Origin: an uncultured virus (IMG/VR IMGVR_UViG_3300027782_000071) | Lineage: Duplodnaviria; Heunggongvirae; Uroviricota; Caudoviricetes | Length of the DNA: 64,000 nucleotides | Virus record (IMG/VR): IMGVR_UViG_3300027782_000071 | Span: 1 to 64,000 of that record | Direction: 5' to 3' (one strand) | Shown: piece after piece, positions 30,528-33,020 of the stretch | Position numbering within the stretch: position 1 is the first letter of the stretch | How the letters are laid out: the number at the start of each line of letters is the position of its first letter | Notes under the pieces: model-generated | What the model was told of the DNA's origin: nothing | The model's input: the letters and a program-made list of their open reading frames with translations, nothing else | Database searches by the model: none | Translations under genes and position numbers: made by a program

Positions 30528-31163
30528 TTAGACCCATTCAAGGGCTTCTGAGACTGCTGGGAATTGTTCGGCAAACACTTTCTTACATGCCTCTGCAATT
30601 TCCATATGTTCTTTTTGAGTTCCGTGTGCAGAACGCAGATTGATATAATGAATCCACGACCTGCAAGAGCCTGTCATATAAATTTTTGTAGGAACTGCAA
30701 GTGGCAATACAAACCTAGCACACTCCTTTGCCACATCACACTCTAGGAGTTCCTTGTAGAGGTCTTGAGCGGCATCAAAATGATCTTGGATCTTAGAGTA
30801 GAGTTCTATCTTAAGGTCTGCTGGGAGGTCGTCTGTGGAGTTCTGGCGGTTCTTTGTGTCCTGCCTACGAAGTTCTGGTAGGGGAATATCCTCTGCAATC
30901 AGATTTGTGTCAGCATAACGTTGTGAGAACTCTTGGAATGTGAAGCTACGATGACGCAGAATTTGTGCGGCAATACCACGAGTAGTCTCAATCTCCAGTG
31001 TCATAGAAGACTGTTCAAACACAGACCAATGATTATGCTTAATGCAATAAGCAAGCAACTTGGAATAGTTTTCGTTATCCTGATTTGCAGGATTAGAAAC
31101 TCTCGCAATAAATGCCATTGTTTTTTCTGCATCTGGTGTAATACTAATTAATTTTACAGTCAT
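30528..31163 (-). CDS. thyX: FAD-dependent thymidylate synthase
   Basis: HWSVFE...QILRHRSFTFQEFSQRY (RHRX7S motif)...KECARFVLP. Confidence 0.96.
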   Translation of the reverse strand: MTVKLISITPDAEKTMAFIARVSNPANQDNENYSKLLAYCIKHNHWSVFEQSSMTLEIETTRGIAAQILRHRSFTFQEFSQRYADTNLIAEDIPLPELRRQDTKNRQNSTDDLPADLKIELYSKIQDHFDAAQDLYKELLECDVAKECARFVLPLAVPTKIYMTGSCRSWIHYINLRSAHGTQKEHMEIAEACKKVFAEQFPAVSEALEWV

Positions 31164-31499: not shown

Positions 31500-31534
31500 A
31501 TTTTACATAAAAAAAAGGAGGGTGTCAACCCCCC
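31500..31534 (-). terminator. Intrinsic terminator whose loop carries the -35 box of the next promoter
   Basis: GGGGGG-TTGACA-CCCTCC-T8; TTGACA-17nt-TAAAAT. Confidence 0.75.
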
Positions 31535-31540
31535 AGTATA

Positions 31541-31654
31541 TTATCGCATTGCCATTACAAGTTTTGCTTGATGCTTGCGTTGTTCTTTTTCCTTTTGCTG
31601 CTTGATTAAAACAAGTTGCCAGTTATTTTTATTTTTCACATTTGCTTGTGACAT
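31541..31654 (-). CDS. 37-aa basic, Gln/Lys-rich peptide downstream of the glutamine riboswitch
   Basis: MSQANVKNKNNWQLVLIKQQKEKEQRKHQAKLVMAMR with strong SD AAGGAG. Confidence 0.65.
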   Translation of the reverse strand: MSQANVKNKNNWQLVLIKQQKEKEQRKHQAKLVMAMR

Positions 31655-31687
31655 TAGGTTTTCTCCTTAGTGGTTTAGGTTAAAGAG

Positions 31688-31900
31688 CGTTCCTTCAGTC
31701 GGCGGTTGCGTCTATTTTACACTCTTTGGGAGTAATTTTTTTGATTTCCCAAATTAAATCGTTGCGAGTTTGTGGAGGCATATTTGCCTTCATAACTCTT
31801 CCAATGATTAACTTTGCTTGTAGACAACTAAGTAAGAGTGCTTCCATAGATGAACGATCCGTTCCGCGTCGGCTTACTTCCGACCCTTTCGGGTTGAACG
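31688..31900 (-). promoter_or_regulatory. Tandem/interlocked glnA-type glutamine riboswitch
   Basis: CGTTC-A-ACCC-GAAA-GGGT-CGGAAGTAAG...GAACG-GAT-CGTTC-ATCTAT[...]ATAGA-CGCAA...CTGAAG-GAACG. Confidence 0.8.
31695..31847 (-). CDS. 50-aa peptide ORF embedded in the P2 loop of the second aptamer
   Basis: MEALLLSCLQAKLIIGRVMKANMPPQTRNDLIWEIKKITPKECKIDATAD; ATG in the P2 stem, TGA inside CTGAAG. Confidence 0.6.
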   Translation of the reverse strand: MEALLLSCLQAKLIIGRVMKANMPPQTRNDLIWEIKKITPKECKIDATAD

Positions 31901-31907
31901 TAGAGGT

Positions 31908-31937
31908 ATTATACCCCCATTGCGGGTATTTAGTCAA
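31908..31937 (-). promoter_or_regulatory. sigma70 promoter (with overlapping late-type TAAATA) for the riboswitch transcript
   Basis: TTGACT-18nt-TATAAT, 7 nt upstream of the first aptamer. Confidence 0.7.
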
Positions 31938-31944
31938 ATAATTC

Positions 31945-31960
31945 TGTAAAATGTGATACA
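31945..31960. promoter_or_regulatory. NtcA-type binding site
   Basis: TGTA-N8-TACA (tgtaaaatgtgataca). Confidence 0.65.
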
Positions 31961-31963
31961 GTT

Positions 31964-32335
31964 TTACTTGCGCTTTTTCTTTTCTGGAACACTATATCCC
32001 CAATTTCTAGGGTTAATCTTACCATAACCCCATCTAATACTACGAATAGTATTGCCTATTTTATCATAGTACATATCAAAAAGATTTACTCTTTTTCCAC
32101 ATCTTGTTAAATCATAACAAATCTCACCATCTACGATATATTCAACAATATATGCATCTGTTGGTACAGTATAATCTTTTGTTTCTTGTAATGTACAATT
32201 GTGTTTGAGTATTTCACACCCATAACGAGATTTAAGTTCTTTTATTTCCTGAGCGTTCCAAATATAATTGGAATCTTTATCAGATACTTTATTTTTTTCT
32301 GTTGACATTATATTTTCTGCAACTACATTTTTCAA
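31964..32335 (-). CDS. Conserved cyanophage hypothetical protein
   Basis: ...PTDAYIV.Y......YDL.R...V.LFD.YYD......I.WGYG.INP..W. Confidence 0.7.
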   Translation of the reverse strand: MKNVVAENIMSTEKNKVSDKDSNYIWNAQEIKELKSRYGCEILKHNCTLQETKDYTVPTDAYIVEYIVDGEICYDLTRCGKRVNLFDMYYDKIGNTIRSIRWGYGKINPRNWGYSVPEKKKRK

Positions 32336-32369: not shown

Positions 32370-33020
32370 TTAACCACGATTTCCCCAACAAATATCCGGA
32401 TATGCTTGGGAAACAATGTCCTTTGAAATTTTATACTTTGTCTCTAGATTCTTATCTTTAGTAAGGCAGAGAATTTCCGATTCAAGTGGATGAAGTCCTT
32501 GAAGAATATTAATAAACATTGTCTCTCTACGAATAGAAGATAGTCCATCATTACCACCTTTTACAAAATTATAAAATTTGGTATATTCTTTACGAATTGA
32601 TGATTTACCTTGATCCGTTGAACCAAGTGATTGTGTTCCAAGTTCTCCCATTTTATAAACAGCATCTTCAATTTTTTGACTTAGAGTCGAATTAAAAGAT
32701 CCTTGTTCACTAACATCAGAGTAAGGAACTTCTCCCGAAGGAAGTAATGAAATTATAGTTTCATCAAAATTCCAAATAAAAATTGCTTTTAATGAATCAT
32801 GTTCATATTTTTTAAGAACTTCAACCTTTTTAGAAATACTCCTTTGCTTTGAAGCAAGATTGAGAATTTCAAATATAAATGGGTTAGCTGGAAGTTCTAG
32901 AATTGGAGTTTCAACAACCTTTTCGGTAACTGTTTTTGGTTGTACCGTTTTAGTTGCCGCTTTAGTTGCTGCTTTAGTCGTCGTCTTCTGTGTCGTCATA
33001 TTCATAGTCAGTGTTTTCAA
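32370..33020 (-). CDS. Conserved T4-like phage protein (DUF6433-like)
   Basis: EIL......KKVEVL...WNFD....LP.GEVPY...RRETMFI..L.GLHP.E. Confidence 0.75.
   Translation of the reverse strand: MKTLTMNMTTQKTTTKAATKAATKTVQPKTVTEKVVETPILELPANPFIFEILNLASKQRSISKKVEVLKKYEHDSLKAIFIWNFDETIISLLPSGEVPYSDVSEQGSFNSTLSQKIEDAVYKMGELGTQSLGSTDQGKSSIRKEYTKFYNFVKGGNDGLSSIRRETMFINILQGLHPLESEILCLTKDKNLETKYKISKDIVSQAYPDICWGNRG

Follow-up and report, generated by a model that had tools for sequence, protein, structure and literature searches.

The element described here is a predicted glutamine-sensing leader on the minus strand (31900-31688) of a 64,000-nucleotide (nt) stretch of a freshwater cyanophage (positions 1 to 64,000 of IMG/VR record IMGVR_UViG_3300027782_000071), called the window throughout, and its closest described relatives are the two classes of glutamine riboswitch. 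Aptamers of this kind are usually viewed as non-coding and self-contained, with the members of a glutamine tandem strung together like beads. In this leader, two predicted sensor cores lie one inside the other. Like glutamine-I riboswitches (RF01739), as exemplified by the gifB/IF17 leader of Synechocystis in the available part of its description (PMC6212724), the cyanophage leader combines a CGUUC/GAACG helix P1, a hairpin followed by CG, the E-loop strands GGAAGUA and GAAG around a helix P3, and a capping G-C pair; in keeping with the same account, it has an anti-Shine-Dalgarno (anti-SD) strand directly 3' of P1 and, in its relatives, small IF17-like (DUF4278-like) genes downstream. It departs from glutamine-I in that the nested cores share P3, the E-loop is split between them, the inner core is permuted and lacks an E-loop, a gene occupies a hairpin loop, and the Rfam score falls below threshold. 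The inner core is closer to glutamine-II (the Downstream-peptide motif, RF01704; structure 6QN3, available in part in PMC6698751), with which it shares the order CGUUCA-hairpin-CGCA and a C:G capping pair corresponding to C19:G41; unlike glutamine-II, it has neither the pseudoknot helix nor P2 of that class and instead sits as a three-way junction on P3.

Tandem glutamine riboswitches, of which a 2022 review counts 157 doublets and 4 triplets, are classed in the available sections of that review as separate, pseudo-cooperative sensors with several expression platforms, and the words “nested”, “interdigitated” and “circular” are absent from those sections (PMC9481103). The cyanophage leader resembles such tandems in carrying two sensors for the same ligand, and the glycine riboswitch in having a single expression platform and inter-aptamer contacts. 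It differs from both in that its units are not side by side: they have exchanged strands, and neither is complete alone. The result is a single nested fold of strand-swapped units with a permuted core and a protein gene within the sensor.

Two further systems invite comparison. Group I introns carry open reading frames (ORFs) in peripheral loops, with starts near core pairings, so that translation and folding compete. The leader is similar in placing a protein gene in a loop of a structured functional RNA, but it is a riboswitch and no ribozyme, and its ORF encodes no homing endonuclease and has no evident mobility function. In leader-peptide attenuation, which structure the downstream RNA adopts depends on where a ribosome stands on an upstream ORF. 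In this case, however, a conserved 50-residue protein under purifying selection takes the place of a short regulatory peptide, and a predicted ligand-binding aptamer is involved.

At the Rfam gathering level there is no hit at the site. A permissive search with RF01739 recovers only unit 1, whose 33.0 bits fall short of the threshold of 35, with a 4-nt gap in the alignment where GAAG should stand. Feature by feature, both strands of the RF01739 P1 are present twice, the variable hairpin after CGUUCA is followed by CG, and a capping pair lies at the open end of P1 (G31880/C31687); both E-loop strands flank P3 only in the composite outer aptamer and not within one unit. RF01704 scores 13.9 bits against a threshold of 33, the GCCGAC segment has no downstream complement, and the pseudoknot within P2 is absent. 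A literature search, with Ames & Breaker 2011 and Ren 2015 outside its scope, returned no nested or permuted glutamine aptamer and no ORF inside one; hits for “circularly permuted” concern tmRNA, genomes or ribozymes and were set aside. The leader represents a form of a known riboswitch class that occurs widely in cyanophages and escapes routine annotation. Were the fold and its competition with translation both true, they would provide a natural permuted, cooperative double aptamer and a new coupling of metabolite sensing to a choice between two products, and would explain why routine Rfam annotation overlooks many cyanophage glutamine riboswitches. They would also link phrog_504, an abundant phage family of unknown function, to nitrogen sensing while the main primary producers of oceans and lakes are being infected.

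Layout of the leader and its relatives

Read 5' to 3' on the minus strand, unit 1 opens with CGUUC (31896-31900), the 5' strand of outer P1, which is invariant in all 176 relatives with the 5' end present. It is followed by the hairpin ACCC GAAA GGGU (ACCCGAAAGGGU, 31883-31894), whose closing pairs covary in relatives (helix 2), and by CGGAAGUA (31875-31882), comprising the CG of the outer pocket, the capping G (31880) and the 5' E-loop strand. Then comes AGCCGACG (31867-31874), the 5' strand of the shared helix P3, with covariation at pairs 1, 5, 6 and 8, separated by CG from the first GAACG (31860-31864), which becomes the 5' strand of inner P1 in the nested fold. The linker GAU (31857-31859) would form the loop of inner P1, with its G pairing with C31708 as the inner capping pair, and joins the second CGUUC (31852-31856), the 3' strand of inner P1. 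The unit-2 hairpin is closed by UCUAU (31846-31850) and AUAGA (31711-31715), with 130 nt between them. The embedded ORF (31695-31847; 50 amino acids plus stop, MEALLLSCLQ...KECKIDATAD) starts in the first of these strands and reads through the second, which doubles as the codons Ile-Asp. CGCA (31707-31710) supplies the CG of the inner pocket and the glutamine-II-like capping C (31708); AC separates it from CGCCGACU (31697-31704), the 3' strand of P3, which doubles as the codons Ala-Asp and the U of the stop codon. GAAG (31693-31696), the 3' E-loop strand, shares its first two bases with the stop, and the last GAACG (31688-31692) is the 3' strand of outer P1.

Unit 1 thus lacks a GAAG strand, and unit 2 has CGCAAC in place of GGAAGUA, just as the original prediction had proposed in assigning the 5' E-loop strand to one unit and the 3' strand to the other. 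Equally borne out are its claims of a TCTAT/ATAGA stem around about 130 nt that encode a 50-residue peptide with two cysteines (Cys8 and Cys43), of an ATG in the stem (31847-31845, its A and U within UCUAU/AUAGA) and of a stop in the aptamer core (UGA, 31697-31695, shared with the final base of P3 and the leading GA of GAAG). Across the units, AGCCGACG and CGCCGACU form six standard pairs of eight, the mismatches being C.A and A.C. The string RAAGGAACG occurs once in the window, and the pattern of the unit junction once in the 74,434-base record.

A blastn search against phage records matched 33, among which four phages span both halves of the leader. DSL-LC02, DSL-LC03 and S-SRM01 have an ORF at the equivalent place; S-CREM1 has both units with a 20-nt hairpin in place of the ORF, and the entire 99 nt are annotated by its authors, in the available part of their paper, as a single glnA riboswitch at 44.0 bits (PMC9964418). 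Two pattern scans of IMG/VR, anchored on unit 1 and on the unit junction, found at least 120 and at least 119 loci, respectively; some loci of the junction scan are unrelated chance matches and were left unparsed. Together with the phage records and the window, the scans gave 217 parsed copies, with 181 distinct sequences among the matches listed. As the patterns fix parts of the core, all counts on these 181 sequences, and counts derived from them, are pattern-biased lower bounds. The 181 distinct relatives lie on cyanophage contigs from marine and freshwater sources. When only sequences found with the unit-1 pattern are considered (n=125), the downstream core is present in 120, a contig end cuts 3, and unit 2 is missing from 2. 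The latter two (L025 and L057) have unit 1 through the first GAACG and then unrelated sequence; they may have arisen by recombination or represent a minimal single form that lacks the 3' strand of the E-loop. The recurrence of the layout in 181 distinct sequences with compensatory changes argues that it is beyond chance.

Evidence for a nested fold

The pairing of P3 across the units, one of the central claims of the original prediction, is where compensatory change is clearest. In the 8-base-pair (bp) class to which the window belongs (n=127), the outermost pair is A-U in 118, C-G in 4, G-C in 2, G-U in 2 and mismatched in 1, and the innermost is U-A in 87, G-C in 35, U-G in 3 and mismatched in 2; pair 5 is G-C in 114, G-U in 9 and A-U in 3. 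A marine class of 47 sequences has a different and perfectly complementary helix, AGUCG/CGACU, in which pair 5 changes from G-C to A-U. P3 is replaced wholesale between classes, the versions being AGCCGACN/NGCCGACU, AGUCG/CGACU and, in a third class, GGACGG/CCGCCC. Mere duplication was rejected as the reason why the two GCCGAC segments resemble each other: the pairs flanking them show complementarity instead of identity, and no repeat exists in the marine class. When the 59 insert-free forms are aligned with MAFFT, 93.2% of the pairs in the nested structure are standard and 15 pairs vary on both sides; 0 of 500 shuffles match the observed values, and partners slid out of register are only 23-47% paired. 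The long-range stem that closes the unit-2 hairpin, which the original prediction had called P2 and had put up for the same covariation check, behaves likewise: it varies among relatives (UCUAU/AUAGA, UCCCA/UGGGA, UCCUAU/AUAGGA, UCUCAU/AUGGGA and others), and its mean contiguous length is 5.97, against 4.14 for shuffled partners with a maximum of 4.66 over 1000 shuffles, which points to covariation.

The capping pairs bear on how the two P1 helices are connected. The base after the unit-1 CG is complementary to the base after the last GAACG in 181 of 181 sequences (G-C in 110, C-G in 71; G31880 with C31687 in the window), and the base after the unit-2 CG to the linker base after the first GAACG in 170 (C-G in 168, G-C in 2). 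If each CGUUC is instead joined to its nearest GAACG, the same positions bring together G.G in 97 and C.C in 108 of the 181. On the alignment of insert-free forms, the nested partners are paired in 100% and 91.5%, versus 25.4% and 23.7% for the side-by-side partners. The outer aptamer enclosing a circularly permuted inner one, which had been offered as one option, is accordingly the arrangement favoured, and we regard the nested fold as very probable from the comparison of relatives. In it, the outer aptamer would be closed by the first CGUUC and the last GAACG and would contain the hairpin, the CG, both E-loop strands and P3. At its far end, P3 would carry no loop but the permuted inner core, in which the first GAACG pairs with the second CGUUC across GAU, followed by the hairpin and CGCA, with no E-loop. 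The linker is 3 nt long in 164 of 181 sequences. In one relative (L047), a 21-nt linker that could form a small hairpin stands between the units; hence the loop of inner P1 tolerates insertions.

In the available part of the glutamine-II study, the long-range pair C19:G41 joins the bases that follow CG and GAACG, respectively, an equivalent pair is described as terminating P1 of glutamine-I, and the contact nucleotides of the two classes are given as C1:G59, G2:C58 with G22, and C19:G41 (PMC6698751). Their counterparts are invariant in the cyanophage leaders, some of them having been required by the parsing pattern itself. Because both cores keep the glutamine-contacting nucleotides of the solved structures, the RNA probably binds two glutamines, and the shared P3 would couple the two sites.

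Several points tell against the nested fold and must be set beside this evidence. Two positions inside P3 are conserved as mismatches in the 8-bp class: pair 3 is C.A in 121 of 127, and pair 6 is A.C in 114 and A-U in the other 13. In 11 of 181 sequences, all of them with a 4-nt linker, the two bases of the inner capping pair do not match. As both P1 helices are built of strands that never vary, they offer no covariation, and the choice between nested and tandem connections rests on the two single capping pairs. The assignment of these pairs in glutamine-I (G and C) is itself drawn from the Rfam consensus and from the equivalence to glutamine-II suggested in the available text of PMC6698751, and the swap from G/C to C/G may reflect few evolutionary events, with related sequences sharing states. 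In a nearest-neighbour model that credits neither E-loop, base triples nor ligand, the nested fold of the window RNA has -54.1 kcal/mol versus -62.8 for the minimum free energy (MFE) structure, a gap of 8.7. The unconstrained MFE structure already forms inner P1, the closing stem and part of P3. It also pairs the first CGUUC (31896-31900) with the GGAAGUA E-loop strand (31875-31881), lengthening hairpin 1, and this pairing might belong to an alternative, ligand-free state or be an artefact of folding.

A conserved gene within the unit-2 hairpin

The unit-2 hairpin is long (138-195 nt) in 107 of 181 sequences, and the remaining 74 are ORF-less. An ATG is found in 107 of 107 long inserts, 3-5 nt past CGUUCA (one at 10 nt), which puts the start codon partly in the closing stem, and in 100 of them a stop, U(G/A)A, overlaps the 3' E-loop strand. 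The ORFs encode 49-69 amino acids in 106 of 107, the exception (L086) being broken at 20, and their indels are multiples of three. Stops per insert number 0 in the ORF frame and 4.3 and 4.8 in the other two forward frames. Among ORFs of equal length, with the RNA-constrained ends excluded, the median proportions of nonsynonymous (pN) and synonymous (pS) differences are 0.17-0.38 and 0.66-0.73, and the ratio of the corresponding substitution rates (dN/dS) is 0.23-0.28; this check, proposed with the original prediction, returned purifying selection and a conserved frame. We consider it almost certain from these patterns that the embedded ORF is a real gene.

Its coding sequence is partly held by the RNA: six codons and the stop lie in the conserved aptamer core, which dictates the C-terminal D-A-(K/N)-(A)-D. 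Over an alignment of the 105 distinct embedded-ORF proteins, identity to the window protein falls to 15%, and Cys8 and Cys43 are invariant in all 105. At a cut-off of E 0.001, 70 of the 105 match phrog_504, a phage family whose function is unknown (best E 1.3e-28); the window protein, at E 0.0031, does not pass it. An AlphaFold model from a 102-row alignment has helices at residues 8-20 and 25-37, with a predicted local distance difference test score of 86, and we predict that the product is a 50-residue, two-cysteine helical hairpin of the phrog_504 family. A Foldseek search of the model against the PDB gave nothing at E<=0.001 (best E 3.2), Pfam has no match for either ORF of the window (the embedded one or the 37-residue one downstream), and tblastn of the window protein against phage records found nothing beyond the four phages already known. 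ESM Atlas offered only eukaryotic DUF4371-type clusters at 0.92, within the chance range, and these were rejected. So was an 80-residue ORF with a TTG start (31937-31695), which is the embedded frame extended back across leader and promoter.

Gain, loss and exchange of the embedded genes

Close relatives differ in the presence of the ORF. One locus (L065) is identical to the window across the whole unit and a diverged relative (L033) carries the ORF, yet another (L067), which has the rare AACC junction of the window, has a short 22-nt hairpin. The core strings are identical in ORF-bearing and ORF-less forms. The unit-1 hairpin too holds a long insert in 43 of 176 sequences, and both hairpins do so in 29. 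Among the distinct hairpin-1 inserts, 41 of 42 contain an intact ORF of 59-75 amino acids with its ATG in the closing stem, encoding a hydrophobic, signal-peptide-like N-terminus and two cysteines. The hairpin-1 ORFs (L014:287-490, L132:235-432 and those of 40 other loci, the window not among them) and the 29 double-ORF leaders, with three ORFs per short transcript, are noted here as side observations.

ORFs in opposite hairpins can be closely similar: the hairpin-1 ORF of L147 (255-431) and the hairpin-2 ORF of L128 (265-447) are 91% identical, and a second such couple (L134:247-429 and L221:118-297) is 62% identical. With this distribution, the ORFs behave as cassettes that move from one hairpin to the other; recombination in the invariant core strings is the presumed route.

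Proposed regulation and alternative explanations

We propose that this freshwater T4-like cyanophage has a small early transcription unit led by a nested double form of the glutamine-I (glnA-type) riboswitch. Past the last GAACG lies CUCUUU (31682-31687), which contains the capping C of the outer pocket (31687) and is the anti-SD strand; in the predicted fold of the tail, it pairs with AAGGAG (31663-31668), the ribosome-binding site of the downstream ORF. In 123 of 176 tails, the first 14 nt past GAACG can pair with 3 or more of the 4 SD-core bases, marine forms using different sequences, and the next ATG follows GAACG after 31-34 nt in 141 of 176. The dual role of C31687, as partner of G31880 and as first base of the anti-SD strand, fits the ON-switch proposed for gifB with the same platform logic in the available part of PMC6212724. 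A ribosome starting at AUG 31847 would have to open the closing stem and inner P1, and one terminating at UGA 31697 would cover P3, the E-loop strand, outer P1 and the first anti-SD bases. Because these footprints would cover the paired strands, one RNA molecule should be unable to fold as a sensor and have its embedded gene translated at the same time. At high glutamine, the nested fold would be stabilised, C31687 would leave the anti-SD helix and AAGGAG would be freed, so that the downstream ORF is on and the embedded start hidden. At low glutamine, the embedded start would be open and the downstream site masked. This reciprocal regulation is our preferred reading, though we advance it only tentatively. 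The one comparative hint comes from the class with a 5-bp P3: GAG is the linker of 38 among its 40 ORF-bearing forms (GAU in the other 2) and of 0 among its 7 ORF-less ones, placing GGAG about 10 nt before the AUG. It may be the embedded ORF's own start signal inside the inner core, the association being inflated by kinship.

Architecture and mechanism taken jointly strike us as evenly poised between right and wrong. A fuller version, which is more speculative than reciprocal regulation by itself and on balance doubtful, would have two pockets on one helix binding cooperatively and the hairpin loops docking mobile two-cysteine mini-proteins, with the identical P1 strands toggling between a side-by-side state in which the embedded start is open and a nested state in which it is hidden. 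The embedded protein would then be made at low glutamine and the downstream IF17-like product at high glutamine in a reciprocal switch, and the phage would read the nitrogen status of its host and pick between two small effectors on one 390-nt transcript.

Certain observations sit poorly with these proposals. In the class of the window, GAU is the linker both with the ORF (46 forms) and without it (44 forms), and a class-specific start signal is hence absent. Termination at the UGA would bring the ribosome onto the anti-SD helix and open that as well, hampering a clean reciprocal switch. The downstream ORF of the window, when aligned with L067:420-776, is without the IF17-like YRG part. Contigs from RNA libraries, detailed below, are a weak hint of transcription and no proof of it.

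The same position of the stop lends itself to a different mechanism, a translational relay, in which the embedded ORF would be translated constitutively from an early transcript and termination at UGA 31697-31695, 8 nt before the anti-SD, would open outer P1 and the anti-SD/SD helix; the downstream ORF would be coupled to it, and glutamine would gate only ribosome-free RNAs. The stop overlapping the E-loop strand in 100 of 107 inserts, the anti-SD strand beginning directly past GAACG and the narrow spacing from GAACG to ATG are all in its favour. However, the stop is in frame simply since the core reads GAC UGA, and with homologous ORFs the frame may be inherited rather than selected. Moreover, platform and spacing are no different in the ORF-less forms; the platform therefore needs no upstream ribosome to work, and we judge the relay unlikely. 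We are no more inclined to the idea that the ORFs are passive cargo, with aptamer loops tolerating any insert, the invariant core strings serving as recombination homology and small-gene cassettes hopping without any selected regulatory interplay. Their presence or absence among close relatives such as L067, the 74 ORF-less forms, the 91% identical ORFs in opposite hairpins with a second case known, and core strings that are equal with or without an ORF are what this idea predicts. It does not accommodate the ATG standing 3-5 nt past CGUUCA and partly in the stem in 106 of 107 inserts, the closing stem maintained by covariation, the GAG linker that accompanies the ORF in one class, or the intact and likewise placed ORFs in 41 of 42 hairpin-1 inserts.

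The two remaining explanations concern the fold itself. If each CGUUC paired with its nearest GAACG, the leader would be a side-by-side tandem with a bridging pseudoknot, the GCCGAC segments and E-loop strands forming an inter-aptamer helix. The P1 strands being identical, both pairings are isoenergetic; the Rfam model aligns unit 1 in this way; as the RNA is made, the first CGUUC encounters the first GAACG at a time when the second CGUUC has yet to be transcribed; and glutamine riboswitches are described as tandem doublets in the available part of PMC9481103. Against this stand the G.G and C.C combinations that it imposes on the capping positions, only about a quarter of which are paired on the insert-free forms, and the linker of just 3 nt in most sequences, which together make it a distinctly improbable arrangement. 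That the leader is a decayed relic, in which recombination around an inserted gene left behind two broken aptamers that no longer sense anything, is the least credible of all and can be given hardly any weight. It is true that neither unit is complete alone, that unit 1 scores 33.0 bits under a threshold of 35, and that the downstream gene of the window is without its IF17-like part. Yet the supposed defects are the same and mutually complementary in 181 distinct sequences, marine and freshwater, with compensatory changes, and the downstream core follows unit 1 in 120 of 125 sequences of the unit-1-pattern set, 3 of the others being cut by contig ends and 2 being without unit 2.

The transcription unit and its surroundings

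The leader is preceded by a promoter-like site, TTGACT-18-TATAAT (31908-31937, minus strand), which has 11 of 12 matches and is a consensus match only. The downstream ORF (31541-31654, minus strand; ATG at 31654) encodes 37 amino acids (MSQANVKNKNNWQLV...) without a Pfam or PHROG match, and a direct comparison with PF14105 (DUF4278) likewise finds none. The downstream gene of relatives is IF17-like; that of DSL-LC02 reaches DUF4278 with E 7e-4 and 20.3 bits, below the PF14105 cut-off of 25.3. The 37-residue ORF of the window has the look of a deletion-fusion in which the opening codons of the IF17-like gene, MSQ(A), run into a second small ORF (MKNNWQLVLIKQ...) that stands by itself in L067. 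An intrinsic-terminator-like hairpin with a T run (31510-31534, minus strand) follows.

Contigs from two lake-water metatranscriptome runs of two studies have 0 differences to 31550-32034 and 31572-31911, respectively, and a third run contains short-form relatives at high depth, joined across 31712/31849. These are assembled contigs, which show neither starts, strand nor level and may include DNA carry-over; the end of one contig (X2) at 31911 falls within the -10 box and is no start site. Further runs (X3-X16) contribute small shares only and were not used for habitat.

The neighbouring genes are all on the minus strand. A ThyX gene lies at 30528-31163 (-) (Thy1, E 2e-49), and a 216-residue ORF two genes upstream of the riboswitch unit (32370-33020, -) matches DUF6433 (E 3e-37). 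Elsewhere in the window, a group I intron (245-436, -; 62.1 bits) stands about 65 nt from a tRNA gene on the same strand (502-575, -; 53.4 bits).

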